Shown here piece by piece: positions 1-32,516 of a stretch of DNA of 32,516 bases; position 1 is the first letter of the stretch; each line of letters begins with the position of its first letter. This DNA comes from a virus. Taxonomy: Duplodnaviria; Caudoviricetes. Made by a program: the position numbers and the translations under genes. The notes below the pieces were generated by a model that ran no database searches, was not told the origin of the DNA, and saw only the letters and a list, made by a program, of their open reading frames with translations. The stretch spans positions 1 through 32,516 of the IMG/VR virus record IMGVR_UViG_3300033508_000213. One strand, given 5' to 3'.

Positions 1-3000
1 AGGAAGTCCTTCGTCGGCATGCGGTAGGCGGCATTGAGTCCCGCGCCGAGAAAGTTTTTGGCAATGGTGGACGCTTTCCACGCCAGTGCGAGATAGGCTT
101 GCGAGGAAATCACGGTTTCCATGAGCCAGCTGGATTTCGGATTGTTGAAGCCATTGCCATCGATGGCCTGCATCCACTTTTGCAGCGCGTTGGCCGCCTC
201 CGGACTGCGTGCCATGAGAGCTTCCTTCACCTCCGGGCGCCCAAGCACGCCGTGGATTTCCCGCGAGATTTCCGCCAGGGCCTTCCAGTGTTCCGTTTGG
301 TTGAGGTGATTGAAATAGATCTTGAAGGCGCTTTCCGCCCTCGGCTTGGCGAGGTGCCGCTTGCGGTCCTTGAGGAATCCTTGCTTGAAACCGCCCTCCA
401 CGATGCCGCCGCCATCGACATTCATCGGCGACTCGTCGCCCTGGGAGAAGAATTTCCCGGGCGTGTAGTTTTCCGTCTGTTTCAGATCGACGCCGAACAT
501 GCGGGCGAAGAGTGCGCGCAGCGGTTCGTAGTTCCCGGCGTATTCGCTGGCGAGGTGCTCGCGCATGCCTTGTGCGGCAGTGCTGAATTGGGCTTCGAGT
601 TCCGCTTGAAACTCCTCGCCCATGCCATGCAAGCGCATGCCGGGCCGATAGCCGTCCTGCGCCCACATCATGCTCAGATAGATCGCTTCCGTGGTGGTGA
701 ATTCTACGGGGTCCGCTGGCTTACGCGTGACGCGTTGCAGAGTGAGGAATTCTTTCTGGCTGTCTGCCGGCAGTGCCTCGAATTGTTCGGTGAGTTGCGC
801 GCTTTCCTGCGCCGTGAGACCGAGGCTCTTCTTCTTCTCCGCATCAAAGAAGGTGTCAATTGGCACCTTGAACGTTTCATGAATCTCCGGGCGCACCGAT
901 GCCTTGATATCGGCGACGTTCTCCATATCCCACAGCATGCGACGGGCGGCCCGGCCTTTCAGTCCGGTCGCTTGTTCCATGGCGGTTTTCCAGCGTTTTT
1001 GCGCTGCAATAATCGCCCCGGTGCGGGCGCGGAACGCCTCGCGGGTGGCGGTGGCCCAGCGCTTTGCAAGCACGCTGTCCCGGCCAAAGGTCTTTTCCAG
1101 CACCTCGCGGAAAGACAGCATCGACCACGCGATATCCTTGGTTTTGCCGCGCAGCGTCTTGGCCGCCTTGCGCGTCTCGGCCACATCAGAATCTTTCGGA
1201 TTCCCTAACTCCTTGAGCGCTTGAGTGCCAAGGGCGCGCACTGCCGTGATGCGGGCTTCTTCCGTGGTGCGCCAGGCGTTGCGGTTGGTTTCGTAAACTT
1301 CGCGGAGTTGTTCGATGGCGCGGCCCATTTCCGCCGCGCTCTTATCGGCGAACGCGCCGTAGGTCATGAGAATCTGGTAACGTTCGGCGGCGTTGGCCAG
1401 TTCGTCGTCGGTCATTTCATCCATCTTGCTATCGAGCACGGCCATTGCCCCAGTGATGTCATCGGCGCTCATGTGGCGCACTTGCTTAACCTGTTCGAAA
1501 TACCGGTGGCCTTCCGCCCCGAGTTTGCCCTTGGCTTTTTTGCCAGCCTCGCGCTTGGCGTCGGACCGCTCAATGAGCTTGTCGAGCATCTTGCCGTATT
1601 CCTTGCCGAGCCACTTTTCGATTTCTGCATCCGCCTTGGCGATGCGTTCGTTGAGGAATTTCAGGCGGGCCTCGTCGGTGCCGAGCTTGGCGAGTTGGGT
1701 GTAGCCGCCGATGCGGCCGCGCACTTCGGGCGGGAGCACGGACAAGATGCCGTCGAGCATGGCGAGGGCGCGCAACAGGCGCTGGCGGGGCGAGTAGTTG
1801 GCAGCCTCTTCCTTGAGGCGTTCGTTTTCCCAGGCGTTGGCTTCCTCCTTGGCTTGCAGGCGGGCCTTGCGCAGGTCCTCTTGCGCGGCCTTCATGAATT
1901 CCCTCATCTTCGTCACGCTCTTTGCCTCGCGCTGGAGAGCGTCCCACATGGCGTCTGGAGTGGGGGAGTTGATCAAGCCCGCGTCGAAGAGTTCTTGCGC
2001 GGCTTGATCCGGCATGAGTTCGCCACCGAAGAGCGAGCGGGAGGCCGCCCCCGCGCCGTCGTAGTCGCCTTGTTTTTTCGGATCGAAAAACGTCTCGCCC
2101 CGCGCGGCTGCCGCCGACTGCGACATGAGACGGCCGCGCAATGGCGTGTCCGGGTTGGCTAGGTAGCCATGCACCGGTTGCGCTTTGAGTTGCGCCAGCT
2201 CCTTTTGATCCAGAATCCCGCCGTGGCGGGCGTGCGCCTCGTCTTCGAGCTCTTCCCGGCGCAGGGCTTCGCGCATGTTGCGCTCCTTGCGAATCGATGC
2301 GGACTTGCGCGGGTCTTCGATGGCCTTGCGTTTGTAGCCCTTGCCGAAGGCGATGCCGAGCTCGTCCTTGTCGCGCTTGAGTGCGCCGAGCTTGTCGAGC
2401 ATGCGGGTGAACATGGCGGCCTTGACGCGTGGGTCCTTGATGCGGGCGGCGGCGTTGAGTTGCAGGCCCTCGACCATCGACGCGGGCGCGAGGGAAAGCG
2501 GAGAGGATTCAGACGCTACTTTGACGGCAGCGGGAAGTGTGTCCTTGATTTCCTCCAAAAAACCGCCTATGGTTTGAGCGGGTCCGGGCTTTGAGGACGC
2601 TGAAGATTCTCCGGAATCCGAAAGCGACTCCTCTGGAAGTCCGGGCCTGTTTGTTTTATCGAACAAGCCAAATTCATAAAAGACGGATGCTTCGCCGCTT
2701 TTCGGATCAAGAGCGTTGAACCATGCGACCGCCGCCTTGCCATCGATCACAACTGGCATCGCAAAATAGCTCACTGCGTCATAAGTGGCTTCCTTGCCAC
2801 CTTTCGAAGGGATAGCCCCAAGATAAACAGACTCCTCTGTGATCCCTTCGATTTCTTTTGCCGCCCGGAATGCGGTTTCTTTGCGTAACTTGCTCGGTGC
2901 CTCCCGTTTGCTGGTGCCCGTGAAAGTGATGCTACGTTCGCTGTCACGATTGGTCAGAGTCTTGCCAACCAAATGATTTGCAATGTGTTCCCTAATGGCT

Positions 3001-5981
3001 TTATGCCAGTCCTTTTTTGCCCCGGGCAGCGCCGCCGTGGTAATCACCAGTGGTTTGATTGGTCGTGAATTGCGCTCCACGCTGGAAGGCACCAGACTGA
3101 ACGGCGCGTCCACCTCCAGCGCCGCTTCGCCAACGAGCGCGGCGGCCTCATCGCGGGCCATGCCGTTGTGTTCCGCCTGGTGATCGCGGCCGGTGAGCTT
3201 GTCGAGGAAGGCCTCGTAGCTGGCCATGTCGAAGCGGCCTTCACGAAAGCCCTTCTGCATGGCGAGGACGCGCGCGGAGGAAAGCCCGAAGACGCCGCGT
3301 GCGCCGTCGAGGAGGGCGCGGAACTTGCCCAGGCGTTTTTCGCCGACGAGTTTCGAGAGCGCGAGCAGGTTGCGCGAAATGATGCCGGGGGAGATTTTAA
3401 GAGTCTTGTCATCCTTGGCGCGCTTGCGGGTGCGGAGGATTTCCGCCTCGGCGATGTGGGAAATCCCTTCGTTGATCATGTCGTCGGTGATGTCCGCCTC
3501 CGCAATTCCTTCGGGCAGCAAGGCGAGTTTTTGCCCGGCGTTGCGGCCCTTGGTCAGCACCTTGCCTTGCATCACGGTATTGACGGCTTTCACGAATTGC
3601 AGCTTGTCGGCGCGGTTGATCGCGCCCGCTGCTTCCGCCCGGCTCACCATGCCGTGCACGGTCTCATGCACGATGGTTGTCACGCTCGCCCCGTGAAACA
3701 GGCGGTTGGTGAAGGTCCGCACCAAGCCGCGCGCTTCCGCTACGTTGCGGCCGAGCGCGGCGTAGGTGGTGGAGCCATCGCCGCCGTTGACTTGTTCTTG
3801 CATGGCCGCCTGCCGGGTGAACTGGTCGATGCTGGCCGGGTCTTCCGCCGCTGCGACCGCCTCGGTGTAAACCGTGCTCAGCTCAAAACTGTTCTTGGCA
3901 TTCGGGTCCCCGGCCATCGCCAGCGCCTCGTCCCCGGCTTCCAGCATCGTGGCCAGATAGGCCACGCGCTCAGACTTCACGTCATCGAGGGCGGCGCTGT
4001 GCGCCATGGCAATGCGCATCGCCCCGGGCATGTCGGGAGCCGTGCCGACTTCCTCCTTGGTCTCGCTATCGAGCACGGCGAAGCCCTCTCCGGAGCGGAT
4101 GATGTCTGGCACCAGCCCGGAGGCTTTCGCGGCTTCCATGGCGGCGCGTTGGGTGGCGGCCTCGGCTTCAAGTTTTTCGTTAGCCAGCTTGGCCGCCTCT
4201 CCCTGCGGATCGAGGGTGGCTAGCATGCCGTCTGCGGCCTCGACCTGAGCCCCCATGCCATCCGCCATGCGGAAATTCGAAATGCCTTCCGGGGTGGCAC
4301 CAGCTGCAAGCAGTTGCGTGTCTGAGGCGGCTTGAAGCTCAGCGATGCGGGAGCGGTCCGCAATCACCCCTTTACCGCCCAGGATGATCGAGATTGGAAG
4401 CATGGTGAGGATGTTTTGCGCGCTGTCTTTCCAATAGCCATCGAACACCCCGTTCTTGCCGTTCTGCCAATCGATATGATCCACATCCATCTTGAGCGCC
4501 GCCGCTGCGTTCTGCACCAGATCCGGCAGCAGGCCTTGCCATTGCTCTATGGTGCCCTCTTGCATCGCGCCCGCCGTGACGCGGGCGAGCATGACAGCAC
4601 TCTTGCTTTTCATGCGCCTGGTGGCGGCCTGCATGGCCTTTTCGAAAATGGGCAGCTTGCCCGCGAAGGCTTTGATTTGCAGCTTCTCCAAGAGGAGTTC
4701 CGGCACGGCGACGATGGGCGCGAGGGTCAGCGCCTTGTCGGACGCTTCCTCGTAGGAATCGCCCACAGCTTCGAAACGGCCCCGGAATTCTTGATAGGCG
4801 CTTTCGTGCGCATTTGCGGCAAAGGCCATTTGCCCGAAATAAGGAACGGCGGCGGCCGCCGTGGTCGCCAGTGCCCCGGGCGCGGAATATAAGGCGGACT
4901 CGGCCACGCGCGCCCATGATCCGTCATCGCTTAGCCAGTCGATCTTGTCGAAGGAAGTTTGTTCGGCGCGTATGACGTCGGCTACAAAGTCAGCGCGCTG
5001 GCGGTCGGCGGCGTCGGCCGCAACCCGTTCGGGGGACGTATCTTCAGCGAGCCCCATTTGCAGAAAGGAATCATAATAATCCTTCTCGGCCGCCGTGACA
5101 GCGAATTGCCCCACATCCCGCCCGGTCTGTTGTTTGAGGTTGGCCCAGAGTTCCTTGCGTTCCGGCTCCGGCAGCGCCTCGCTGGCCGTTTTCAGGGCCT
5201 TCATGAATTCCCCCCGGGTGGCGGCATCAGGCATCGCGCGATAAGCGTTTTCTGCCGCAGCGCGCACGCCGGACTTGGCGCGGAAGGCCCCGAACACATC
5301 CGCCAGCGGCTCGGCAAAGGGTTCCATCTTCTCGCGCAGATGGTTCCGCTGTTCGTAGAACCTCGAATGCAAATCCGCATCCTTGCCCGGCTTGTATGCG
5401 GGGGATGCTTGGAACTTTTCCCGGACCCCGGCCCAGACGCCCGCGTTGTGCGTCGGATCGACCATGGAAATGGCCGCCGCCTTCGCCGCCTCACTGGCCA
5501 GCGAGGTGTAGAGCTCCTTTTCCTCCTTGCGCCCCTGTGCGGCCTTGACGAGCTCGCCGTGGAATTCATCGGCATCGAGCGCCCCCTTGCCGCCGAATTC
5601 CTTATGCGCGATGCTGGCGCGGTAAAGATCCGCAGCATCGGCGGATAGGTCAGGTTGGCCGGTCTTGAGGCGCAGGTAGCCATGCACCACGAACGCGCGC
5701 TTGTCTTTTTCCTGATCATCGCTGAACTGGTTGGGCGGGAGCGGATGCTTCTTGAAAAAATCAGGGTCCAGCAAGGCGGAATCCAGCTTTTCCAGATAGG
5801 CGCGTTGTTTCTTGCGCGCCTCCTGCATGCGCGCGGCTTCCTGTTCCTCCCATGGCCGGGCCATTTCCTCCGCCATCGGCGAGGCAGCGGATTGCGGGAT
5901 GCCAGCGGTAAGCGGCAGCGTGGCCCCGAGTGGCGAGGTGCTGGCGGAGGCGAAGCCCCCTTCAAGGGATGCGGTGATCAT
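1..5981 (-). CDS. Giant internal virion / polyvalent protein (>1990 aa, 3' end outside window) with HExxH metallopeptidase and LPD3-like domains
   Basis: Missing from the ORF track because it runs off the edge. My manual translation from ATG 5981 (ATGA overlap with the upstream gene stop) reads MITASLEGGF... to ...YRMPTKDF at position 3 with no stop found. HETVH at 3654-3668. Last gene of the internal-virion block, in the T7 gp16 position. Confidence 0.85.
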   Translation of the reverse strand, partial: MITASLEGGFASASTSPLGATLPLTAGIPQSAASPMAEEMARPWEEQEAARMQEARKKQRAYLEKLDSALLDPDFFKKHPLPPNQFSDDQEKDKRAFVVHGYLRLKTGQPDLSADAADLYRASIAHKEFGGKGALDADEFHGELVKAAQGRKEEKELYTSLASEAAKAAAISMVDPTHNAGVWAGVREKFQASPAYKPGKDADLHSRFYEQRNHLREKMEPFAEPLADVFGAFRAKSGVRAAAENAYRAMPDAATRGEFMKALKTASEALPEPERKELWANLKQQTGRDVGQFAVTAAEKDYYDSFLQMGLAEDTSPERVAADAADRQRADFVADVIRAEQTSFDKIDWLSDDGSWARVAESALYSAPGALATTAAAAVPYFGQMAFAANAHESAYQEFRGRFEAVGDSYEEASDKALTLAPIVAVPELLLEKLQIKAFAGKLPIFEKAMQAATRRMKSKSAVMLARVTAGAMQEGTIEQWQGLLPDLVQNAAAALKMDVDHIDWQNGKNGVFDGYWKDSAQNILTMLPISIILGGKGVIADRSRIAELQAASDTQLLAAGATPEGISNFRMADGMGAQVEAADGMLATLDPQGEAAKLANEKLEAEAATQRAAMEAAKASGLVPDIIRSGEGFAVLDSETKEEVGTAPDMPGAMRIAMAHSAALDDVKSERVAYLATMLEAGDEALAMAGDPNAKNSFELSTVYTEAVAAAEDPASIDQFTRQAAMQEQVNGGDGSTTYAALGRNVAEARGLVRTFTNRLFHGASVTTIVHETVHGMVSRAEAAGAINRADKLQFVKAVNTVMQGKVLTKGRNAGQKLALLPEGIAEADITDDMINEGISHIAEAEILRTRKRAKDDKTLKISPGIISRNLLALSKLVGEKRLGKFRALLDGARGVFGLSSARVLAMQKGFREGRFDMASYEAFLDKLTGRDHQAEHNGMARDEAAALVGEAALEVDAPFSLVPSSVERNSRPIKPLVITTAALPGAKKDWHKAIREHIANHLVGKTLTNRDSERSITFTGTSKREAPSKLRKETAFRAAKEIEGITEESVYLGAIPSKGGKEATYDAVSYFAMPVVIDGKAAVAWFNALDPKSGEASVFYEFGLFDKTNRPGLPEESLSDSGESSASSKPGPAQTIGGFLEEIKDTLPAAVKVASESSPLSLAPASMVEGLQLNAAARIKDPRVKAAMFTRMLDKLGALKRDKDELGIAFGKGYKRKAIEDPRKSASIRKERNMREALRREELEDEAHARHGGILDQKELAQLKAQPVHGYLANPDTPLRGRLMSQSAAAARGETFFDPKKQGDYDGAGAASRSLFGGELMPDQAAQELFDAGLINSPTPDAMWDALQREAKSVTKMREFMKAAQEDLRKARLQAKEEANAWENERLKEEAANYSPRQRLLRALAMLDGILSVLPPEVRGRIGGYTQLAKLGTDEARLKFLNERIAKADAEIEKWLGKEYGKMLDKLIERSDAKREAGKKAKGKLGAEGHRYFEQVKQVRHMSADDITGAMAVLDSKMDEMTDDELANAAERYQILMTYGAFADKSAAEMGRAIEQLREVYETNRNAWRTTEEARITAVRALGTQALKELGNPKDSDVAETRKAAKTLRGKTKDIAWSMLSFREVLEKTFGRDSVLAKRWATATREAFRARTGAIIAAQKRWKTAMEQATGLKGRAARRMLWDMENVADIKASVRPEIHETFKVPIDTFFDAEKKKSLGLTAQESAQLTEQFEALPADSQKEFLTLQRVTRKPADPVEFTTTEAIYLSMMWAQDGYRPGMRLHGMGEEFQAELEAQFSTAAQGMREHLASEYAGNYEPLRALFARMFGVDLKQTENYTPGKFFSQGDESPMNVDGGGIVEGGFKQGFLKDRKRHLAKPRAESAFKIYFNHLNQTEHWKALAEISREIHGVLGRPEVKEALMARSPEAANALQKWMQAIDGNGFNNPKSSWLMETVISSQAYLALAWKASTIAKNFLGAGLNAAYRMPTKDF

Positions 5982-18573: not shown

Positions 18574-19046
18574 TCCGCGTCGTCACCCCCGATGGTTACT
18601 TCGATGTCCACGCTCCCGCTATGTGCCACGTCGAGCTTGTCGCCGTAGCGTTTCGGGTCCCACTTCGAGAGCAGCTTGAGCCGCGTCTCAATCTGCAACT
18701 TCCGGTGCCCCAGCATGTCGCCGCGCTTGATTTCGGTGCCCCACTCCTTTTCCACCTCTTCCATTCCCAACACCGGATTGTCGGCGATCCGCAGGCACTC
18801 GGCCGCGATGGCGTCGTATCCCTCAATCCGCGCGCGCGCGATGCTGGCGGAAAACGTTTCGTCCGCCCCCATCCAATCGGTAACGGTTCTAACAGCAGGC
18901 ATGCGCGGGGAGCGGCAGATTTCGGCCATCGGTTCGCCCTTGGAAAGCCGTTCGCAAATCGCCGCAGCAGTGGCGGGGGTGAACTTGCTCGGGCGTCCGC
19001 GCTTCTTGGCGGGTTTTTTGGCGGAGGGTTTGGTTTTCGCGCTCAT
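18570..19046 (-). CDS. terS: Terminase small subunit
   Basis: GRPSKF...ICERL..GE...IC...MP...TV..W HTH and KLQIETRLKLLSKWDPKRYGDK; overlaps the terL start. Confidence 0.88.
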   Translation of the reverse strand: MSAKTKPSAKKPAKKRGRPSKFTPATAAAICERLSKGEPMAEICRSPRMPAVRTVTDWMGADETFSASIARARIEGYDAIAAECLRIADNPVLGMEEVEKEWGTEIKRGDMLGHRKLQIETRLKLLSKWDPKRYGDKLDVAHSGSVDIEVTIGGDDAE

Positions 19047-19480
19047 GAATGCGGGGTGGATTGGGCCACCATCGGTGGGGCGAGCGCGAGGGAGAGTATT
19101 TTTATAAACTCATCGCGGAGGTGCGCCTCGTGCATGGCGAGCGCGGTTTGCCGTTGGCGGGCGGAATCCACGGTTTGCCAGGTGCGGTTGAACGCCCGGG
19201 CGACCATCTGCATCGGGATACCTGCCGAGCAGCAAACCGCCATGGCGAGAACGCGGGCGGCAGCCGTCGGCGGGCATTCGCGGGTCGGGCTCAGAATTGC
19301 GCGCCACTCGATGCGGCGTTCATCGGCCACGGTTTTGACCACCCGCTCAATGAGCACGCGGGCCGTGGTGATAGATTGCGCGCGGCGGTCAGCGAATGCG
19401 CAGGGCGGGGCGTCTTGCATGGCCCATGGACTAGCAGGTTGTGGCAGCCGTGTCATCGAAATATCGCAGGAAATGTGCAT
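19043..19480 (-). CDS. Putative HTH regulator resembling the DnaA C-terminal domain; candidate late activator
   Basis: ARVLAM......IPMQMVARAFNRTWQTV resembles the DnaA domain IV HTH; start uncertain, chosen after an A/C-rich leader. Confidence 0.45.
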   Translation of the reverse strand: MHISCDISMTRLPQPASPWAMQDAPPCAFADRRAQSITTARVLIERVVKTVADERRIEWRAILSPTRECPPTAAARVLAMAVCCSAGIPMQMVARAFNRTWQTVDSARQRQTALAMHEAHLRDEFIKILSLALAPPMVAQSTPHS

Positions 19481-19569
19481 TTGTAATTGATTTGTGATTT
19501 TGGGCAGGAAGTCGGAGCGGGTGTGAGTCAGCCCTCTTGCTCGCATCGTCAAATCATGATGCGATAATG

Positions 19570-19917
19570 TCATTTTCGCCCCGCGAGAAATCCCCGCAGA
19601 TGGTCGAGAGCCCATGACCACCCATGCGAAGCGGTCTTGCGGCCATCGGGTGATTCCAGCGTGATCCGGTCGATTCTGTCTCCAATCCGCACCGTCCAGC
19701 GCCGGACTTTGCCGGATCGAAAATCGGTCCATTGTAGGCATCCTAAAGCGTCCCCCTGCTTATGCGGTAGATTCTCCGCGTCGGATTCCGCTATTTCACG
19801 GAGGCGTTCGGGCAGGTCGAGCATCCGCCGTTCAGATTGAGCGCGTTGGGAGGCTTTGCCCATTGCGCTGAATCTGAGTCGCTTACGCTCGGCGCGTTGT
19901 TTTCGATAGCTTGCCAC
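19570..19917 (-). CDS. Hypothetical protein starting inside the attI-like site
   Basis: 115-aa ORF with GTG start 5 nt after the stop of the last cassette gene. Confidence 0.6.
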   Translation of the reverse strand: MASYRKQRAERKRLRFSAMGKASQRAQSERRMLDLPERLREIAESDAENLPHKQGDALGCLQWTDFRSGKVRRWTVRIGDRIDRITLESPDGRKTASHGWSWALDHLRGFLAGRK

Positions 19918-19939
19918 GGGTGTTATAATAACGTGTTCT
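19892..19939 (+). repeat. 48-bp direct repeat copy 1; attI-like site heading the array
   Basis: gcgcgttgttttcgatagcttgccacgggtgttataataacgtgttct, identical at 21931-21978; ends in core GTTCTGC (19935-19941); no attC-type palindrome. Confidence 0.7.
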
Positions 19940-20573
19940 GCATAAAGAGATCCGCATCGAGTTCGGCCTGCAGTCGCCGCCTCGCGGTTTCAAAGTGCTT
20001 CGGGTCGCGCTCGATTCCCACGAAGGGGCGGCGGGCGCGGATAGCGGCGATTCCCGTTGTCCCCGTCCCCATGAAGGGATCGACCACGGCACCGGGCGGC
20101 ATGAGTTCCATCAGCTTTGCCATGAGCTTGTCCGGTTTCACCGATGGATGGCCGTGATCGTCGTGGTAGTTCGGCACCGCGATCACGTCGTTTTTCAGCG
20201 CGGGGATGTTGTAGAAGAGGATCGGTTCCCAGTTGTTGAAGCCTTTCAGCTTTCCATTCCGTTGCGTCGATCCTTGGCGCACCCATGCGCCTATCCAGTC
20301 CGGCGTCGGATAGTCACGCATCCCCACCACTCCGCAGAAGGTGGCCACGGGCGAAGTGCCAGCCAGCGGCAGCCAGTTCGGGATTTCCTCGTCCCAGTCC
20401 GCTTTCTTCATGCCATAGGGCGGGTCGGTGATGATGACGCCGAGTTGCAGCGTCGGGAGGATTTCCATGCAGTCACCCAGGAACAACACCACCGAAGAAT
20501 GCAGAACAAGACGCTGCATGGAACGCCGAGGAGCGTCCTTGTCGAGTTCGAGAGTCTTGGGGTCGGCGTCCAT
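19923..20573 (-). CDS. DNA methyltransferase, N6/N4 beta class (cassette 1)
   Basis: ITDPPY, HPSVKP, VVDPFMGTGTT; ATG lies inside the attC-1 arm. Confidence 0.88.
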   Translation of the reverse strand: MDADPKTLELDKDAPRRSMQRLVLHSSVVLFLGDCMEILPTLQLGVIITDPPYGMKKADWDEEIPNWLPLAGTSPVATFCGVVGMRDYPTPDWIGAWVRQGSTQRNGKLKGFNNWEPILFYNIPALKNDVIAVPNYHDDHGHPSVKPDKLMAKLMELMPPGAVVDPFMGTGTTGIAAIRARRPFVGIERDPKHFETARRRLQAELDADLFMQNTLL

Positions 20574-20590
20574 GAGCTTAAGCGTTCGCC
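20501..20590 (+). repeat. attC-like site 1
   Basis: R'' GCAGAAC; GCT[G]CATGG[A]ACGCCGA pairs with TCGGCGTCCATGAGC; R' GTTCGCC. Confidence 0.88.
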
Positions 20591-20868
20591 AGACCAATAA
20601 TATCCCCCTCTTCGTCAAACTCGAAGAGATGATCGCACTCGTCCCACCTCTTCTCTTCTCGGATACACGCAGCTTCAGCCCGCCTCATTTCATCGCGGTC
20701 ATCAGTGGCGGTAGATACCATCATCGCGCCCTCCCATTCCGCGAAGGATGCACGGTATTCTTCGACCGTCCGTATTGGCGGCAAAGGCGAACAAATCGTC
20801 ACATCCAACCCCTCATCACGGGGTTGTTCAACGGTTTCTGGCTTCGATTTTATTTCTTGGTTTGGCAT
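20578..20868 (-). CDS. Hypothetical protein (cassette 2)
   Basis: 96-aa ORF filling the interval between attC-1 and attC-2. Confidence 0.65.
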   Translation of the reverse strand: MPNQEIKSKPETVEQPRDEGLDVTICSPLPPIRTVEEYRASFAEWEGAMMVSTATDDRDEMRRAEAACIREEKRWDECDHLFEFDEEGDIIGLANA

Positions 20869-20912
20869 AGTTTCATTTCTTCGGTTCGGGGTGGATGGAC
20901 TCGGCGTTCTCC
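20786..20912 (+). repeat. attC-like site 2
   Basis: R'' GGCGAAC; GTC[A]CATCC[A]ACCCC pairs with GGGGTGGATGGAC; R' GTTCTCC. Confidence 0.88.
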
Positions 20913-21352
20913 AAGAGATTTGCTACGGCGGCGCGTGGAGTATCTCCGAAGCCTGCGACCGACTCTTGCAGGTTTACGAATCCATCGAGAGTCGCGCACC
21001 ATGCGTTGCCGTCGAGATACACATTGACCTGCGTTTGCCACCAATCAGGAGCCGTGCCTGCGCTGCACGCGAAGTTGCCCGCGGAGCTTGGGCAATAGTC
21101 GTTGTGACATGCCCAGCCGCCGCCGTAGGTCGAAGTTGGACTTCCGCAGTTTGGGCATGGCCCGCGCATGAAGTGGCTCGGAGCGTGATTCCAAGAGTCC
21201 CAGCGGATTGCTTCACCGAATGCCCATCGGTACTTTCCAGTGTCATACACCTTACCCGGAACAAGATGGAGAACAAGTCGCGGCAGATCAACCGCCGGGA
21301 CGTTCGTAGTTTGGACGGTTTCCGCCGCCTCGGGGTCTTGTGGTTTATCCAT
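20873..21352 (-). CDS. Hypothetical protein with a putative Zn-ribbon (cassette 3)
   Basis: CPNC...WACHNDYC; 159 aa. Confidence 0.65.
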   Translation of the reverse strand: MDKPQDPEAAETVQTTNVPAVDLPRLVLHLVPGKVYDTGKYRWAFGEAIRWDSWNHAPSHFMRGPCPNCGSPTSTYGGGWACHNDYCPSSAGNFACSAGTAPDWWQTQVNVYLDGNAWCATLDGFVNLQESVAGFGDTPRAAVANLLENAESIHPEPKK

Positions 21353-21399
21353 GATTTTTCGTGCCGGAGTCCGGCGGTGTCTGCGCTATTGCGTTCTGC
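21268..21399 (+). repeat. attC-like site 3
   Basis: R'' GGAGAAC; GCG[G]CAGA[T]C[A]ACCGCCGG pairs with CCGGCGGTGTCTGCGC; R' GTTCTGC. Confidence 0.85.
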
Positions 21400-21614
21400 T
21401 TTTTAAGGTGAGCTTGCCACGCTTTGTATGCCCAAGGTCGGAGAATTTCCTCGGTGATCGTTTCCCCTTCGGCGTGGTCGAGGAGCCAACAAGCGAACCA
21501 TTCAAGTCCGCTATAGAACTCGCCGCCAACCGCAGAACAAGTCGTCTCATCCAACCCCTCATCTGGTGGCTCTTCGTCGTCTTCCAGCATATCAATGAAT
21601 ACATCTTCACTCAT
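21345..21614 (-). CDS. Hypothetical acidic protein (cassette 4)
   Basis: Start MSEDVF inside attC-4; 89 aa. Confidence 0.6.
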   Translation of the reverse strand: MSEDVFIDMLEDDEEPPDEGLDETTCSAVGGEFYSGLEWFACWLLDHAEGETITEEILRPWAYKAWQAHLKKQNAIAQTPPDSGTKNHG

Positions 21615-21658
21615 GGTCGTTTGGCTTCTATTCGGTGTGGATGGACTCAGCGTTCGTT
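21532..21658 (+). repeat. attC-like site 4
   Basis: R'' GCAGAAC; GTC[T]CATCC[A]AC pairs with GTGGATGGAC; R' GTTCGTT. Confidence 0.85.
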
Positions 21659-21877
21659 TTACAAAAGGCGTTTGATAATCGGGAGCATAAGACCAATACA
21701 GATCGGTCGCCACCATTCAAGATCGCCGGGGCATTTTGCCAGCCACAGAACGGCAGCAATGCAGGCGATCAGTGCGATGGATTCCAAAAGAAAACGAACA
21801 AGGCGTCTCATCCAACCATCACTACGCTGAGTGTCGGCGGGGTCTTCTAGGTGGGGATTGCGTTGTGTGTATTGCAT
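21659..21877 (-). CDS. Small putative membrane protein (cassette 5)
   Basis: 72 aa with two hydrophobic segments; its stop abuts R' of attC-4. Confidence 0.6.
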   Translation of the reverse strand: MQYTQRNPHLEDPADTQRSDGWMRRLVRFLLESIALIACIAAVLWLAKCPGDLEWWRPICIGLMLPIIKRLL

Positions 21878-21917
21878 AGTTTTGTGTCAGTGATGGTGGA
21901 TGGACTCGACGTTCTGG
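21793..21917 (+). repeat. attC-like site 5
   Basis: R'' AACGAAC; GTC[T]CATCC[A]ACCATCACT pairs with AGTGATGGTGGATGGAC; R' GTTCTGG. Confidence 0.88.
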
Positions 21918-21930
21918 GAAGAGATCACTT

Positions 21931-21978
21931 GCGCGTTGTTTTCGATAGCTTGCCACGGGTGTTATAATAACGTGTTCT
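21931..21978 (+). repeat. 48-bp direct repeat copy 2; internal attI-like site
   Basis: Identical to 19892-19939; core GTTCTCT at 21974-21980. Confidence 0.7.
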
Positions 21979-22894
21979 CTGCCTGACTGTCGGGCTTCCC
22001 GTCAGCGGTTTCGGCAGCGATTCTTTGGCTTTCAGACGCAAGCGCGTCGGACTCCGCCATACAAAAGAGTCCGCACGATACAGCGAAGTCAGGCCCGGTC
22101 GGGTCTCCCTCCTCGATCTCGTCAAGATAGATTTCGGAGCGCACTCCTTTGCGGGTGATCCGGTTGATGGCCACGCCGAACTCGCGTTCGTATCCCGCGA
22201 TCCGCCAGTAGATTTCGGGGAAGTGTTTTCGGGTGCGTTTCCAGTAGTTGATATTGTCGCGGGCTTTCACGCACCCGATGCAGTTGTTGTTGAGGAAGCC
22301 CAGCAGATACATCAGCGGCAGCGCGATTCCCTGCCGCGCCAGAATGCCGAAGCAGTCTTCCTTGGTGAGGTGTTTTTCCACCAGCGGGCATTCGAGGATT
22401 CTTTCGGTGTTGAGAGCCTGCCACTGAGCCACGCGCCGCCGTTCGGTGGCGGTGTATCCGTAGATTTCCACGTCGCCGACTCGCCACACCTTGTCACCAG
22501 GGGTGCGCTTCATCTCCCCCGTGCATGGCGCTCCTTGATGGCTGACTAAGAACCGGCGAGCCTCGAACACTTCCCATGTCGTGTCGTATTTATCCGACTT
22601 CAGGATTGTCACCGGCTTTCCGAACCACGCTTCGCATTCGCCTATGAAGCGGAGATTGTCGGGATGTTCGGCACCGGGATTGGTGTAGTAGATTTCCACG
22701 GCATCTCCGTATTTCTCGATTGCCATCTTCGTGGCCACCGCAGACGCGGCACCGCAAGAGAATCGTGAGATCACCCGGCCTGAGCGACGAAGAGAAGAGA
22801 TGCCGGAAGATGACGGCAGAGAACAAGAGATCGCTGCCAATGACTCCCGCGAGGGAGTCGGTGACGAGGCGGAGTTGTAGGGCGCGGGATTCAT
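21962..22894 (-). CDS. PAPS-reductase / adenine nucleotide alpha-hydrolase family protein (cassette 6)
   Basis: PP-loop-like FSCGAASA, EHPDN.RF, APCT..MK, NNCIGCVK; start MNPAPYN with ATGA overlap inside attC-6. Confidence 0.75.
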   Translation of the reverse strand: MNPAPYNSASSPTPSRESLAAISCSLPSSSGISSLRRSGRVISRFSCGAASAVATKMAIEKYGDAVEIYYTNPGAEHPDNLRFIGECEAWFGKPVTILKSDKYDTTWEVFEARRFLVSHQGAPCTGEMKRTPGDKVWRVGDVEIYGYTATERRRVAQWQALNTERILECPLVEKHLTKEDCFGILARQGIALPLMYLLGFLNNNCIGCVKARDNINYWKRTRKHFPEIYWRIAGYEREFGVAINRITRKGVRSEIYLDEIEEGDPTGPDFAVSCGLFCMAESDALASESQRIAAETADGKPDSQAENTLL

Positions 22895-22915
22895 GGCAGG
22901 ATACTGACGTTCTCC
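22818..22915 (+). repeat. attC-like site 6
   Basis: R'' AGAGAAC; ATC[G]CTGCC[A]ATGA pairs with TCATGGCAGGAT; R' GTTCTCC. Confidence 0.85.
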
Positions 22916-23523
22916 AGATAATGTCCCGCGATTCCGCAGGCTTTCAATTTGGCGGCACATTCGCTGCCGTAGGCTATCAGCACGCTTGGAGCGCCAGCGG
23001 TGCCGCCGCGTTTCCCCTCCTTCGTGTAGAAGTTGATCCGTCCTTTCACCCAGAGGAATGCGCTGGCATGTTGCCACACCCACGGGAAGAATGCTTTCGT
23101 TTCGGTGCGGGCGAAGATGAGCGCGATTCCGTCGCCGTGATTGGCCAGCCTCCGCATCCACCGCTCAGTTTCGTTCCCGTATGGCGGGTTCATCCACACG
23201 CGGCCTTCCCATGGCTTCAGTAGTCCATTGTCGGCCATGGTGTAGTGCTTCGCGGCGGTGTCCCATGGGCGGGGCATTGGCGAGCATGGGTCCAAGTCGA
23301 ACGGCCCAAGTGCGCGGATGATTTCCGGCGGTGTCAGCCAGTCTTCTTTCCCGGTAGTCCGGTCATGCGCGAATCCAATATCCAAGACGGCCTGCGATGG
23401 AGAACAAGTCGCTGGTGGACAACCGCCTTCTGCGGTGTCTTCAAGTTGTAGGGTATCAGGAGTTTTCATACTTCGTTGGAGTCTTGTGTCTGCGGATTTT
23501 GGGGGAGTAGCGGAGATGGTCAT
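22891..23523 (-). CDS. Phage Dam-type N6-adenine DNA methyltransferase (cassette 7)
   Basis: DWLTP, FDLDPC, NGL..PW.GRVWMNPPY, ARTET, GRINF; alternative start at 23469. Confidence 0.85.
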   Translation of the reverse strand: MTISATPPKSADTRLQRSMKTPDTLQLEDTAEGGCPPATCSPSQAVLDIGFAHDRTTGKEDWLTPPEIIRALGPFDLDPCSPMPRPWDTAAKHYTMADNGLLKPWEGRVWMNPPYGNETERWMRRLANHGDGIALIFARTETKAFFPWVWQHASAFLWVKGRINFYTKEGKRGGTAGAPSVLIAYGSECAAKLKACGIAGHYLENVSILP

Positions 23524-23580
23524 TGTTTGGAGTCGGCTGGTTGGTTCATGCCCACGGGCCGGATTTGCTCATCGTTCACC
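23399..23580 (+). repeat. attC-like site 7 (hybrid; arms do not pair)
   Basis: R'' GGAGAAC with a typical left arm and R' GTTCACC, but the arms are not complementary and the site is long (182 bp). Confidence 0.65.
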
Positions 23581-24137
23581 AGAGATTTCAGAGCTGTCGC
23601 CAAGAGCCGCGCCGATTGGCGGGCGTCGGCCAGTGGCTCATGCGCCGGGAGTTCATGTGGAAGTCGCTCGTAGGTGGCCATCGGGTCCATTCCCGCAGCG
23701 AGCATGATCGACGCGATCTCGTGCATTGGATACGGACCATCCCAGTTGCGGGAACCGTCATCCCGGATGCACGCGCTCACGAATGACGCTTCGACGGGCC
23801 AGCCGCATTCCACGAACATCCTCGCCTTTTGCTCCACGGCTTTCATCCACTCATGCCAGAAGGCATCGCGGACACCTCTGGGATTGGTGATATTCTTCGA
23901 TGCCGTGCTTTGGGTCACATTCGCCATGACCCATTCACGATCCGAGAACTCGCCATCGGCGCGGTCTGGATGACAGTGATAGGCGAACTCATGGAGCGGC
24001 GATCCGTCTTCATCATAGATTCCCCCGGCTACGGAGAAGGCTTGCCCGTGAAGGCCGATAGATTCCACGTCGAACACGAAGAATGGTACACAAGTGCCTG
24101 ATCCCAACGGGGACCGCTCTGTTGTCGAAGTTTTCAT
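23520..24137 (-). CDS. DEDDh (DnaQ-like) 3'-5' exonuclease (cassette 8)
   Basis: ExoI FVFDVES, ExoIII HEPLADA. Confidence 0.75.
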   Translation of the reverse strand: MKTSTTERSPLGSGTCVPFFVFDVESIGLHGQAFSVAGGIYDEDGSPLHEFAYHCHPDRADGEFSDREWVMANVTQSTASKNITNPRGVRDAFWHEWMKAVEQKARMFVECGWPVEASFVSACIRDDGSRNWDGPYPMHEIASIMLAAGMDPMATYERLPHELPAHEPLADARQSARLLATALKSLVNDEQIRPVGMNQPADSKQ

Positions 24138-24205
24138 TTTGTTTGGTAGTTTGATTTGATTGCGGAGTGGCGTTGTCCGCCGGTCCCTCCACTTGGACGT
24201 TATGC
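24085..24205 (+). repeat. attC-like site 8 (hybrid/degenerate)
   Basis: R'' degenerate GGTACAC; left arm CCTGATCCCAACGGGGAC is a near copy of the attC-9 left arm; R' GTTATGC. Confidence 0.65.
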
Positions 24206-24991
24206 CAAGAGATCGCGCTGAACGGTTTGCACGCGTCGGTTGGCGGTTTCACAGTGATCCGCATCCCGTTCGATGCAGACGAAGTGCCGGTCGGTCATGC
24301 GAGCCGCTTCGGCCAGCGTGCCACTCCCAGCGAAGGGATCGAGGATCGTCCCGCCAGGCGGGCAGACGACGCGGCAGAGTTGCGCGATGAGATCCACGGG
24401 CTTTTGCGTTTGATGCTCCTTGTCGTCGGCTCTCACGCGGTTGCACCGCAGCACGTTCGCGGTTCCCTTGTTGTGGTATTTCGGGCTTCCGGCGGTCATG
24501 TGCATCACCAGTTCATGGCAGGCACGGAAGCCGTTCCCGAGTCCCATGTTGCCCTTGTCCCACACGATCAGGTTTTGATACCGGAAGCCTGCGGATTCCA
24601 CGGCGGGAATCAGGTTCGGGATCATGCGCCAATCGCAGAAGATCAGCAGCGATCCCTCGCCTTTCAGTAGCCGCATGGATTCCACCGCCATTTCACGGAT
24701 CAGCCACACAAGGCCAGCGGTTCCCATGTTGTCCCCCACGAACCATCCGAAGTTGCGGATATTCTCAGAGCGTAGCCCTTGCCCTTTCGCTGCCGTCCGT
24801 TGCGCTTCACCCACGGAGCCGGAGCAGTAGGGCGGATCGGTGATGACCGCATCGATGCAGCCATCAGGCATCCCGCGCATGATTTGGAGACAGTCGCCGT
24901 GCAGGATTGTATCCACCGGCAAAGAGGCATAACAAGAGTCTGATCCCAACGGGGACTCGCCTTGCTGTTCAAGTTCAGGGGTGGTTATCAT
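24200..24991 (-). CDS. DNA methyltransferase, N6/N4 beta class (cassette 9)
   Basis: ITDPPY, IVWDK, HQTQKP, ILDPFAGSGT; start MITTPE inside attC-9; TAA stop within the core of attC-8. Confidence 0.9.
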   Translation of the reverse strand: MITTPELEQQGESPLGSDSCYASLPVDTILHGDCLQIMRGMPDGCIDAVITDPPYCSGSVGEAQRTAAKGQGLRSENIRNFGWFVGDNMGTAGLVWLIREMAVESMRLLKGEGSLLIFCDWRMIPNLIPAVESAGFRYQNLIVWDKGNMGLGNGFRACHELVMHMTAGSPKYHNKGTANVLRCNRVRADDKEHQTQKPVDLIAQLCRVVCPPGGTILDPFAGSGTLAEAARMTDRHFVCIERDADHCETANRRVQTVQRDLLA

Positions 24992-25048
24992 GATTTTTGA
25001 GGTGTCGGAGTGGCGCTGCCGTCCCCGTGGGATAGGCCAGCGTTCTCG
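24927..25048 (+). repeat. attC-like site 9
   Basis: R'' GCATAAC; CT[G]ATCCC[A]ACGGGGAC pairs with GTCCCCGTGGGATAG; R' GTTCTCG. Confidence 0.88.
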
Positions 25049-25323
25049 GAATAAACCCACCCTTCGTTTCCGGCGGATTGCAGTATTGCCAGAGCTTCGC
25101 ATTGCGCGGCGATTAGCTCGTTACCATCTGCCACGGTGATCGGCTGGACCAATCCGCATCGCTCGTCGGTAGCGCGATCCTGACACGCGACATAAACGTC
25201 AGCGGCTTCATAGAGCCTGCGGAGGGCATTCAAGACCCGCGAATAAGTCGCTCCTGAGCAACCATCACCGGCCTCCTGTTGTGGTGAGTCTTCGGGCTTC
25301 GATGTATCATTTTCGGTTTGCAT
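24988..25323 (-). CDS. Hypothetical protein (cassette 10)
   Basis: 111-aa ORF; ATGA-coupled to the next gene. Confidence 0.65.
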   Translation of the reverse strand: MQTENDTSKPEDSPQQEAGDGCSGATYSRVLNALRRLYEAADVYVACQDRATDERCGLVQPITVADGNELIAAQCEALAILQSAGNEGWVYSENAGLSHGDGSATPTPQKS

Positions 25324-25369
25324 AGTTTTTCGTGGTTAGTGGTGAGGGTGCCAGAGCTAGTCGTTCTCG
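25238..25369 (+). repeat. attC-like site 10
   Basis: R'' degenerate CGCGAAT; GCT[C]CTG[A]GC[A]ACCATCACC pairs with GGTGAGGGTGCCAGAGC (one mismatch); R' GTTCTCG. Confidence 0.8.
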
Positions 25370-25860
25370 GAAGAAATCCGTTTCCGGCTGGCCCGCTCAT
25401 CTCGGCGGCGCATCGCTTCGGCGAACTTCGCTCCCCATGCAGAGATTTCCCCGGCGAGGTGCCGATATTCCGCAACATCCTCCGGCGCTTCCGATCCGCT
25501 TTTCACTCGCTCTAAAATGTCCGCGAGCATTTCCTTCGCAGTCACGCTTTCGAGCTGCTTGATTCTCTCGTGTTGGCGGATGCTGTGAGCCTGCGCACGG
25601 TTGCGCTCAGCCATGAGCTTTTCCACCATCGGCGCACGGTCTTTCAGATCCGGGCGGGCGGCGATGATCCGTTTGATTGCGACCTGGTTGTCGTGGTTGG
25701 CTTTCCACATATCGCGTTCGACTTCGGCTCGGGCGGCCATTTCTACCGCGCATTCCCATTTGTTCCTCCAGCCCTGTTCATGGCACTCGGAAGACCGAGA
25801 ACAAGGCACTGGAGAGGAACCGCCTTCAGCGGCTTCGTTGAGTTGTGGGGTAGCATTCAT
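25357..25860 (-). CDS. Hypothetical coiled-coil protein (cassette 11)
   Basis: 167-aa ORF; start inside attC-11. Confidence 0.65.
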   Translation of the reverse strand: MNATPQLNEAAEGGSSPVPCSRSSECHEQGWRNKWECAVEMAARAEVERDMWKANHDNQVAIKRIIAARPDLKDRAPMVEKLMAERNRAQAHSIRQHERIKQLESVTAKEMLADILERVKSGSEAPEDVAEYRHLAGEISAWGAKFAEAMRRRDERASRKRISSEND

Positions 25861-25914
25861 TGATTTTCTTTGGTGGAGGTTTCCGTCGGCGGTCCCTCAG
25901 TTTTGGCGTTCTGC
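25796..25914 (+). repeat. attC-like site 11
   Basis: R'' CGAGAAC; ACTG[G]AG[A]GG[A]ACCGCC pairs with GGCGGTCCCTCAGT; R' GTTCTGC. Confidence 0.85.
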
Positions 25915-26174
25915 CCAAGACCGAGGATGTATTCGGCGTCGATTTGCAGGACGAATAAGAGCGTCCAGAAGTTTTCAAGGTTCGGCATTCTTCGACCTGT
26001 TTCCCAATGCGATATTGCAGCGGCGGGTAACCCCGTCCGCTTTGCAAGGTCGGCTTGCGACCATTGGTTGAGTTCGCGTGCCTCGCGTAGTCGTGAGCCT
26101 GTGAACTTTCGGTCAAGGAAGAATAAGACATGGGAGGCAACGCCTCGGGGGTATGTTTTCGGATCGTAGCTCAT
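25857..26174 (-). CDS. XRE-family HTH transcriptional regulator (cassette 12)
   Basis: RLREARELNQWSQADLAKRTGLPAAAISHWETGRRMP; start MSYDPK inside attC-12. Confidence 0.85.
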   Translation of the reverse strand: MSYDPKTYPRGVASHVLFFLDRKFTGSRLREARELNQWSQADLAKRTGLPAAAISHWETGRRMPNLENFWTLLFVLQIDAEYILGLGQNAKTEGPPTETSTKENQ

Positions 26175-26204
26175 TTGTGGCGTGCCTCCATATTGGCGTT
26201 CAAA
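26118..26204 (+). repeat. attC-like site 12 (terminal; R' overlaps the ssb stop codon)
   Basis: R'' degenerate GAAGAAT; ATG[G]GAGGC[A]ACGCC pairs with GGCGTGCCTCCAT; R' GTTCAAA. Confidence 0.82.
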
Positions 26205-26643
26205 ACGGTAAATCTTCCCCGTCGTCGTAAGTGGCGGGTTGGCTTGTTGGCGCGGGCGGCATGCCTGGGGAGGTGCTAGGCTGGCTGTAATGGGGATTCT
26301 GGTATCCCTCCCGGTCGGATGGAGGAACGCTGTCACGCTTCGGTTCGATCAGGTGCATGCTCTCGCACGTCACCTTTGTTTTCCGTTGCTTCTTACCAGA
26401 TTTGTCTTCCCATTCCTCCTGCGAGAGGTGGCCTGTGATGCCCAGTCGGTCGCCCTTCTGGACGGCCTTCTTTGCAAGGTCGGCTGTCGCGCCCCATAGC
26501 GTGACGCCAACCCACACGGTTTTCTTATTTTCTCCCCATCCGTCATCCACGGCCAGCGTGAGCTGTGCCACGGACTTGCCGCTGGGGGTGTATCTCAATT
26601 CTACTTCGCCGCCGACGCGGCCGATGATGTTTACGTTGTTCAT
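26200..26643 (-). CDS. ssb: Single-stranded DNA-binding protein
   Basis: MNNVNIIGR...ELRYTPSGK, OB fold, C-terminal DLPF. Confidence 0.95.
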   Translation of the reverse strand: MNNVNIIGRVGGEVELRYTPSGKSVAQLTLAVDDGWGENKKTVWVGVTLWGATADLAKKAVQKGDRLGITGHLSQEEWEDKSGKKQRKTKVTCESMHLIEPKRDSVPPSDREGYQNPHYSQPSTSPGMPPAPTSQPATYDDGEDLPF

Positions 26644-32039: not shown

Positions 32040-32230
32040 GCCGGCCTCCTTCCTTCGTTCTTGGCTTCCCCATCTGCATTGCCAAGCTCCACGGCGGCCA
32101 CCTTTTCAAGGGCCTCGTTGAGTGCCTGGATCGGCGGCAATTGCAGGCGGGCGGATTTGGCCAGTAACCAGTCCCGTGTCCGGGGACTGAGGTCGGCCAA
32201 CGTGATCGGTAATGTCAGGGTTGCGCTCAT
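32036..32230 (-). CDS. Small DNA-binding protein in the Cro position
   Basis: 64 aa; first gene of the leftward operon, divergent from the repressor. Confidence 0.5.
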   Translation of the reverse strand: MSATLTLPITLADLSPRTRDWLLAKSARLQLPPIQALNEALEKVAAVELGNADGEAKNEGRRPA

Positions 32231-32334
32231 GTCGATGCACAAAAAGTGCATTGTTTTAATGCACTCACAAGATAAAAATGCATAATTTTATGAAAAAACT
32301 TTCAGTACTGCATAAAACCGTGTATTAAAACGGC
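32231..32334. promoter_or_regulatory. Divergent promoter/operator region (lysis-lysogeny switch)
   Basis: AT-rich; palindromes ATGCAC-N5-GTGCAT (32235-32251) and GTGCATT-N5-AATGCAC (32246-32264), plus further TGCAT half-sites. Confidence 0.65.
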
Positions 32335-32516
32335 ATGGACACGTCCAAAGAAGGCATCAAGGCATGGCTTGCCGACTATTCTGATAGGGATCGCACTTGG
32401 CTTGCTGAGAAGTGCGAAGTTGAAAAACGCACCGTGGATAATTGGCTTTCCTCTCCACAGAACATCCCCTCGAAAGCCATCCTCATCATTGAAGGCTTGA
32501 TGCGGGCCGATGCAGA
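32335..32516 (+). CDS. CI-like repressor, N-terminal HTH (truncated by the window edge)
   Basis: MDTSKEGIKAWL...DRTWLAEKCEVEKRTVDNWLS...IP; the only credible plus-strand gene, divergent from the early operon. Confidence 0.7.
   Translation, partial: MDTSKEGIKAWLADYSDRDRTWLAEKCEVEKRTVDNWLSSPQNIPSKAILIIEGLMRADA

Follow-up and report, generated by a model that had tools for sequence, protein, structure and literature searches.

The stretch of DNA analysed here (the window) is the entire 32,516-base virus record IMGVR_UViG_3300033508_000213, which is about 60% complete. Between a fixed helix-turn-helix gene and ssb, the single-stranded DNA-binding protein gene, lies an array of twelve gene cassettes (19892..26204). 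It is headed by a site resembling the attI of integrons, and its junctions carry twelve sites with the anatomy of integron attC sites. Integrons are bacterial devices and have lately been seen as stores of anti-phage defence genes. A first-pass annotation made from the letters alone had described the twelve attC-like sites and the inverted orientation of the genes. The window was compared with a near-identical contig (G001, 99% identity, also about 60% complete), a close relative (G002) and other loci (L-numbers). It was also compared with population contigs from four sequencing runs, two of which are called X1 and X3. Runs sharing few sequence words were left out, and the window's own sample is not necessarily included.

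Results

The twelve sites were found on the plus strand with a purpose-built arm-and-motif scanner, and their lengths (87-182 bp) are those first reported. They are attC1 (20501-20590, crossover G at 20584), attC2 (20786-20912, G 20906), attC3 (21268-21399, G 21393), attC4 (21532-21658, G 21652), attC5 (21793-21917, G 21911), attC6 (22818-22915, G 22909), site 7 (23399-23580, G 23574), site 8 (24085-24205, G 24199), attC9 (24927-25048, G 25042), attC10 (25238-25369, G 25363), attC11 (25796-25914, G 25908) and attC12 (26118-26204, G 26198). The R' box of attC12 contains the ssb stop codon. The attC2 family is common to many phage arrays and one chromosomal integron, and attC3 is 93% alike to an attC in L069. 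As in bacterial integrons, the sites have R and L boxes, spacers of 5-6 bp, extra bases near L'' and the AAC crossover. The R'' box is degenerate in three sites, attC10 and attC12 among them, with CAC, AAT and AAT in place of AAC.

The arm complementarity was 10-17 in ten of the twelve sites when symmetric gap costs were used, against a null of 4.3 ± 2.2 with a maximum of 11.5 among 400. The other two sites are hybrids. Site 7 (arm score 2.5) joins two attC halves with unpaired arms, and other attC ends stand before 23574 in X1 and X3. In site 8 (1.5), the left arm fits the right arm of site 9. The L'' arms of the ten good sites carry 24 extra bases in all, compared with 2 for the L' arms, which indicates that the plus strand is the attC top strand, as had been proposed. 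The bottom strands were folded with DNA energies, and the R boxes paired with a probability of 0.68-0.99 in six of the twelve. The best-folding site was attC6 (z -4.0, R-box pairing 0.99). The earlier statement that ten sites fold well holds for the arms, but less for the whole bottom strand, where the R box pairs with high probability in these six. Free-energy z-scores against shuffles were mostly weak and separated the sites poorly because of the long loops. Therefore, arm alignment and pairing probability were used. Folding differences between top and bottom strands were small, and an Rfam search of the sites gave no match at E <= 1. Elsewhere, one attC in L062 (7736-9561) is oriented against the adjoining attC run.

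In nine of the twelve sites, the R'' box complements the previous crossover heptamer exactly, and in the other three, five of seven bases match. None of the twelve shows a 7/7 match to its own R'. Over 200,000 partner permutations, the mean was 1.3 exact matches and the maximum 8 (never 9). These counts agree with the first-pass annotation, which had taken the previous site as the partner. This is correct in general, but the left partner of sites 1 and 6 is a 48-bp repeat and not an attC. The count falls to 8/12 if attC5 is taken as the left partner of site 6. Among 102 distinct phage-type intervals, 81 have an R'' that fully matches the previous R', and 6 one that matches their own. Some of these intervals conceal a missed site, and one of the loci they come from (L083) is in a bacterial bin.

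The 48-bp repeat (19892-19939 and 21931-21978) is, judged from its sequence, a divergent attI that had been missed before. Copy 1 (19892..19941, plus strand) stands at the array head, with an L box TTATAAT, a 5-bp spacer and the crossover point between G and TT (G/TT) at 19935. Copy 2 (21931..21980, plus strand, G 21974) shares the 48 bp and lies within the array. An attI matrix built from 20 intI-adjacent sites of relatives only placed both copies first among all window positions, at 14.8 bits. Only 19 bases of the beginning of a cassette precede copy 2, which stands at the head of a second cassette run. Its left junction (21912-21931) is uncovered by any listed piece or joint, and the internal copy may have arisen where two arrays fused or where the assembly joined sequences. 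The exact attI 19-mer was found in no viral contig, with the phage's own records possibly excluded from that search. As for a cassette promoter (Pc) reading from attI into the cassettes, no sigma-70 consensus is listed at attI, and the genes point towards attI. Two regulatory roles of the sites were considered. A promoter function of attI was unsupported (the scan gave 8 promoter sites against 4.6 expected, none at attI), and so was a terminator function of attC, since terminators were fewer than in shuffles. An inverted repeat with 33-base arms (19818-19891) is located just outside the first attI.

All twelve array genes lie on the minus strand and are antisense to the attC sites, in agreement with the first-pass annotation. 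Five of them have family matches. Cassette 1 (19923..20573) encodes an N6/N4 DNA methyltransferase of 216 residues (PF01555, phrog_67), whose start is in attC1 and whose stop is in the attI L box. Cassette 6 (21962..22894) encodes a PAPS-reductase-like protein of 310 residues (phrog_424, E 1e-47), cassette 7 (22891..23523) a Dam-type N6-adenine methyltransferase of 210 residues (PF05869, phrog_111), cassette 9 (24200..24991) a second N6/N4 DNA methyltransferase of 263 residues (PF01555), and cassette 12 (25857..26174) an XRE-type helix-turn-helix regulator of 105 residues (PF01381, E 1.7e-13). The remaining products have no family or no firm family. They come from cassette 2 (20578..20868, 96 residues), cassette 3 (20873..21352, 159 residues, no firm family), cassette 4 (21345..21614, 89 residues), cassette 5 (21659..21877, 72 residues, hydrophobic), cassette 8 (23520..24137, 205 residues), cassette 10 (24988..25323, 111 residues) and cassette 11 (25357..25860, 167 residues). 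Among GenBank phages, only the Dam gene of these cassettes was matched. The cargo of three DNA methylases, a PAPS-reductase-like protein, a regulator and seven unknowns likely serves DNA modification and counter-defence.

The inversion is also found in the relatives. Of their 36 cassettes of at least 330 bases, 16 matched PHROGs in the reverse frame and one in the forward frame, and this single forward-matching cassette seems to have its own promoter. Rare forward cassettes were seen at L002:12220-12965 and L080:8795-9310, each with an apparent promoter of its own and two small genes (one for a helix-turn-helix regulator), in arrays that are otherwise inverted. In host-type cassettes, the longer frame was forward in five of six. 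A chromosomal integron beside lnt (L089) holds forward cassettes mixed with three reverse-frame cassettes, two of which have attC families seen in phages. This mixed orientation suggests that the phage and host cassette pools exchange cassettes.

Each window gene begins inside its own attC, and ten of the twelve cross the next crossover and end in the neighbouring site. Ninety-four cassettes were examined for the reading frame at this crossing, and in 69 distinct ones a single reverse frame stayed open across the body; genes stopping within the body and cassettes with two open frames are excluded from this count. The crossover is crossed by 65 of the 69 genes, and all 65, from 58 protein families, read AAC as one codon. 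At the start-side AAC, which was used as a control, the frames divide 32/20/11. In the AAC frame, 32 of 43 cases have a stop at most 8 nt from the ATG of the site itself (16 ATGA overlaps), compared with 6/43 in each of the other frames. The window itself has the ATGA overlap at four of eleven junctions, and three more are within 8 bases. Since incoming genes cross in the AAC frame, any cassette order would remain translatable and translationally coupled.

The movement of cassettes was followed in the population contigs. Two joints in X3 fall at G/TT: one, from 19934 to 20906, connects attI copy 1 straight to cassette 3, and the other, from 25361 to 25907, leaves attC10 and skips cassette 11. 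Nine of the 22 listed loose contig ends are at -1 to +5 of G/TT, including those at attC1 (20583, 20587), attC9 (25044, 25046) and attC10 (25367). The other listed ends are, all but one, inside an attC or at most 30 bases from it. In X1, the backbone depth was 54-66 and that of the cassette bins 0-54, with about 10 for cassette 1, about 6 for cassette 9 and none for cassettes 6 and 7. A joint from 24151 to 25012 appears in three of the four runs, and through it the left arm of site 8 gains a matching right arm. The hybrid sites 7 and 8 and the joints inside attC loops indicate that homologous, loop-to-loop recombination or assembly forks also shape the array. No contig of the compared runs spans the array, so the window order is not established as one molecule. 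From these comparisons, the window is read as one arrangement of a shuffled pool.

The first-pass annotation had suggested a search for relatives that switch context exactly at G/TT, and such switches were found in relatives as well as in the phage's own population. In G002, the same cassette occurs twice, once after intI-attI and once after an attC, and the copies are identical from GTT onward. The whole of cassette 5 is present in a different context in L060/L067 at 78.5% identity, and the likeness ends at -3/+2 of G/TT. A cassette common to L062 and L064 (99.7%) ends at the same -3/+2. L119 and L120 share the intI start and attI and diverge after GTTC. These whole-cassette swaps at G/TT support the earlier proposal that the accessory region would be assembled by IntI-type recombination. 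The G002 contig (L048, L051) appears to hold two alternative left ends of one array: intI-attI stands at the first, and the other has extra cassettes and a second attI-like site. They seem to be two population variants in one assembly.

The integrase was found in relatives. G002 encodes a 333-residue tyrosine recombinase with best matches to TIGR02249 and the IntI4 structure (PDB 2a3v, E 1e-34), and the IntI-specific insert aligned between it and IntI4. The catalytic residues R137, K165, H267, R270, H293 and Y302 are invariant in 36 aligned rows. There are 458 database homologues at E <= 1e-20, and the 120 listed ones have 59-100% identity. In a tree of 81 rows, the 24 phage-group rows form one branch with a Shimodaira-Hasegawa-like approximate likelihood ratio (SH-aLRT) support of 100. 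The phage group sits among IntI-like rows, and none of the 34 host IntI rows falls inside it. Among 401 genomes of the likely host phylum, no match to the phage IntI exceeds 235 bits. GenBank phages contain no member of the phage clade (best match 33.6%), and the clade may have been overlooked for that reason.

Thirty-four intI loci with upstream sequence, several of them near-duplicates, were compared. In 32 of them, the intI start codon has an attI motif at a distance of about 30-45 bases. The motif consists of an AT-rich L box, then five bases, then GTT, and the likeness among these loci stops at GTT. The set of intI, attI and inverted cassettes is complete in relatives such as G002, L077, L105, L106 and L138. 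The phage setting of intI was read from six long loci and not from short metagenome contigs: two have terminases and replication genes, two Mu-like transposition genes, and two a primase and a ParB-like gene. In L117 and L129, the phage-clade IntI stands beside Mu-like transposase genes. Judged from this neighbourhood, transposable phages also carry the integron system. Among 29 viral loci with the attI motif, an array without intI within 2.5 kb was found in eight (five distinct), a whole or truncated intI in three and no cassette in 18. An intact attI and array accompany a truncated or split intI in L079 (10001-10450), L080 (10001-10480) and L161, and integrase decay looks common.

Some further loci touch on the integrase. 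In L083 (6650-11550, the same as L100) and L150, the same attC families stand beside IntI-like genes outside the main phage clade, and the genes in L083 have the inverted orientation. The cassette pool may serve more than one lineage of integrase. An AT-rich viral family (L250, L252, L255, L258, L261, L263, L267, L270, L271) has a conserved attI-like motif, and the scanner found neither intI nor attC there. In virus Rctr41k (L278, GenBank KX853513, 4680-10101), an IntI-like gene annotated as xerD is followed by five attC-like sites of 127-131 bp. Its genes are forward and everything is on one strand, an inverted-integrase layout that the consulted tables of Qi et al. 2023 do not contain.

The setting of the array is a phage with podovirus-like head and tail genes according to family searches. 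On the minus strand, the order is RecT, YqaJ exonuclease, resolvase, replication initiator, DnaC-like loader and ssb, then the array, the helix-turn-helix gene and the terminases. The ssb gene (26200..26643, minus strand, PF00436) is the fixed gene where the early operon meets the array, and in L002 and L003 the arrays begin within one or two genes after ssb. The helix-turn-helix gene past attI (19043..19741, minus strand) takes the position that intI has in many relatives. A look-up in the Atlas gave only a helix-turn-helix lead for it, and its relatives were found in the near-identical contig only. At 19540, the depth in X1 goes down from 66 to 38.5; the population therefore also varies there. 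An AT-rich gap with divergent small genes (32230-32516) is probably the immunity region with the early promoter. G001 ends within the array and differs from the window in two stretches outside it (L050; window 2510-3121 and 4128-5511). The phage is probably temperate, because G001 encodes an ordinary phage integrase. The attC motif had twelve genome hits; three carry arrays and nine showed none. All three array-bearing hits belong to Verrucomicrobiota, which makes this phylum the likely host. The best-matching datasets for the phage are microbial-mat metagenomes, and no RNA dataset is listed among those containing its sequence.

Discussion

The window array is a CALIN (cluster of attC sites lacking an integron-integrase): no intI adjoins the attC cluster, and here it has an attI. 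It is apparently active and belongs to a phage-adapted form of integron. We consider it very likely that this phage integron array, with its own attI, backward genes and no integrase here, is reshuffled at G/TT by an integrase supplied in trans, most likely the phage-specific IntI, with its genes predicted to be expressed as the tail of the early operon. In the proposed mechanism, IntI would fold and cut the bottom (minus) strand at AAC, excise cassettes as circles and insert them at attI or attC, in line with the integron biochemistry given in PMC5027507. The enzyme would act in trans or come from an intI-bearing variant of the phage. From the gene layout, leftward transcription starting in the immunity region and passing through ssb would read the backward genes. 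Because transcription would enter from the ssb side, a Pc promoter would be unneeded, and the newest cassette would be read last. Each attC would act as a translation junction whose right arm gives the stop of the incoming gene and whose loop gives the start of its own gene. In lambdoid phages, the origin lies inside the initiator gene. More speculatively, if the origin is in the initiator gene here, the bottom strand would be the lagging template. Excision is raised when the bottom strand has this position, according to PMC5371416.

Several observations weigh against this reading. Neither intI nor a remnant was detected in the window by six-frame profile search, and intI is also absent from G001, which is similarly incomplete and broken in the array. 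The relatives' IntI scores 193.8 bits, below the TIGR02249 cut-off of 265, and the tree is a quick one with phage rows chosen by likeness to the query. At 14.8 bits, the window attI is below its training sites (18.9-30.6 bits), and a third matrix match in the window, at 32334 inside the AT-rich gap (14.3 bits), which was taken as chance, comes close to it. Sites 7 and 8 fail arm pairing, and the R-box pairing probability is at most 0.11 in six of the twelve bottom strands. Each of the two joints at G/TT is seen in one low-depth X3 contig whose intervening sequence is not known, and four of the eight listed joints lie inside attC loops.

The first-pass annotation had proposed recombination assays with the host IntI. 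In amendment of this, the likeliest enzyme is one of the phage-specific IntI clade of the relatives, which fits the window attI best, and not the host IntI alone. Shuffling of the same cassettes by a host chromosomal IntI, through attC x attC recombination or relaxed use of the divergent attI, is the main rival, although we regard it as rather unlikely. In its favour, an IntI-like gene is present in 112 of 401 genomes of the likely host phylum, IntI1 recombines five of six phage attC sites (PMC9892861), the integron beside lnt mixes host cassettes with reverse-frame ones of phage attC families, and eight of the 29 viral attI loci have an array with no intI nearby. Against it, the window attI resembles the attI of the phage clade and is used in the population, and no host IntI row enters that clade. 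An attI is generally read best by its own integrase, which also counts against the host enzyme.

A question of another kind is whether the twelve-cassette array is largely an assembly mosaic, in which its length, the second attI and the hybrid sites would be artefacts of a system that is itself real. The missing spanning contig, the lack of X1 coverage of cassettes 6 and 7, the joint from 24151 to 25012 in three runs, the uncovered stretch 21912-21931 and the end of G001 inside the array give this a real, though less than even, chance. On the other hand, R'' fits the left partner within each cassette regardless of order, and X1 records keep the window order for attI-cassette 1, for cassettes 3-5 and for cassettes 10-12 with ssb. 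The compared runs, moreover, need not include the window's own sample. It is very improbable that the sites are conserved linkers swapped by RecT and the exonuclease or by host homologous recombination, with the integron appearance a relic. RecT and YqaJ are encoded in the same operon, sites 7 and 8 are hybrid, joints fall within loops, and intI is truncated in L079, L080 and L161, all of which would suit such swapping. But the breakpoints share only 3-7 bases (GTT and a few more), which is too short for annealing, and they lie at one fixed point. The match of R'' with the previous R' requires circles opened at G/TT, and the arms differ between sites in sequence but still pair.

The first-pass annotation knew of no description of this arrangement. 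Clusters of attC sites in phages have been published; the inversion, the IntI clade and the frame rule were not found in the literature searched. Qi et al. 2023 (PMC9892861) reported 17 phage CALINs, mostly with 2-4 sites and a typical layout, and showed IntI1 to recombine five of six phage attC sites at G/TT. The complete phage integrons of that study are captured Vibrio, Shewanella or class 1 integrons, and the methylase of TJE1, on the top strand, terminates within its attC (Tables S3 and S4). The window array is like these CALINs in having attC clusters without intI and methyltransferase cargo. It differs in its twelve sites, in the inversion of all genes, in the start codons and most stop codons within att sites, and in having a phage attI and, in relatives, a phage IntI clade. 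As in bacterial integrons, the relatives' intI points away from the attC array and attI adjoins intI. Unlike in bacterial integrons, the phage genes lie antisense to attC and have the orientation of intI, and expression would come from the far end and not from Pc.

Three other arrangements are comparable in part. According to Nivina et al. 2016 (PMC5027507), promoter-facing cassettes were never observed; this concerns whole flipped cassettes, whereas here the gene alone is flipped against its attC. In the Treponema inverted-integrase integrons, as described by Cury et al. 2016 (PMC4889954), intI and the cassette genes are likewise co-directional. There, however, intI is flipped against attC, while in the phages it is the genes that are flipped, against a canonical intI and attC. 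The attI-ORF-attI (ORF, open reading frame) and delta-attI cassettes (PMC12901181) share an attI copy within the array, but the internal attI here has only 19 bases of a cassette's beginning before it and opens a second cassette run. Inverted cassette genes as a system, a phage IntI clade and a fixed frame were not found in the literature covered, from which subscription journals were mostly missing.

More broadly, we think it reasonably probable that phages run an integron lineage of their own, with a distinct IntI clade that has its own attI, and with backward cassettes shared in a common pool, whose attC sites serve as standard translation junctions. Unrelated phages, including those that, like this one, have lost intI, would draw on this pool to reassemble their anti-defence region as needed and would exchange cassettes with host chromosomal integrons. 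The inversion would put the recombinogenic strand on the coding strand, probably the lagging template, and would speed shuffling. Phages would then employ integron chemistry, with an integrase clade specific to them, on accessory genes of their own. This would offer a site-specific and testable route to the mosaicism of accessory regions, for which homologous or illegitimate recombination is the usual explanation. The frame rule is relevant to the way in which cassettes arise and stay expressible, in that one protein starts, and the next one ends, within the recombination site. The pool of cassettes would also be a ready list of candidate DNA-modification and counter-defence genes.

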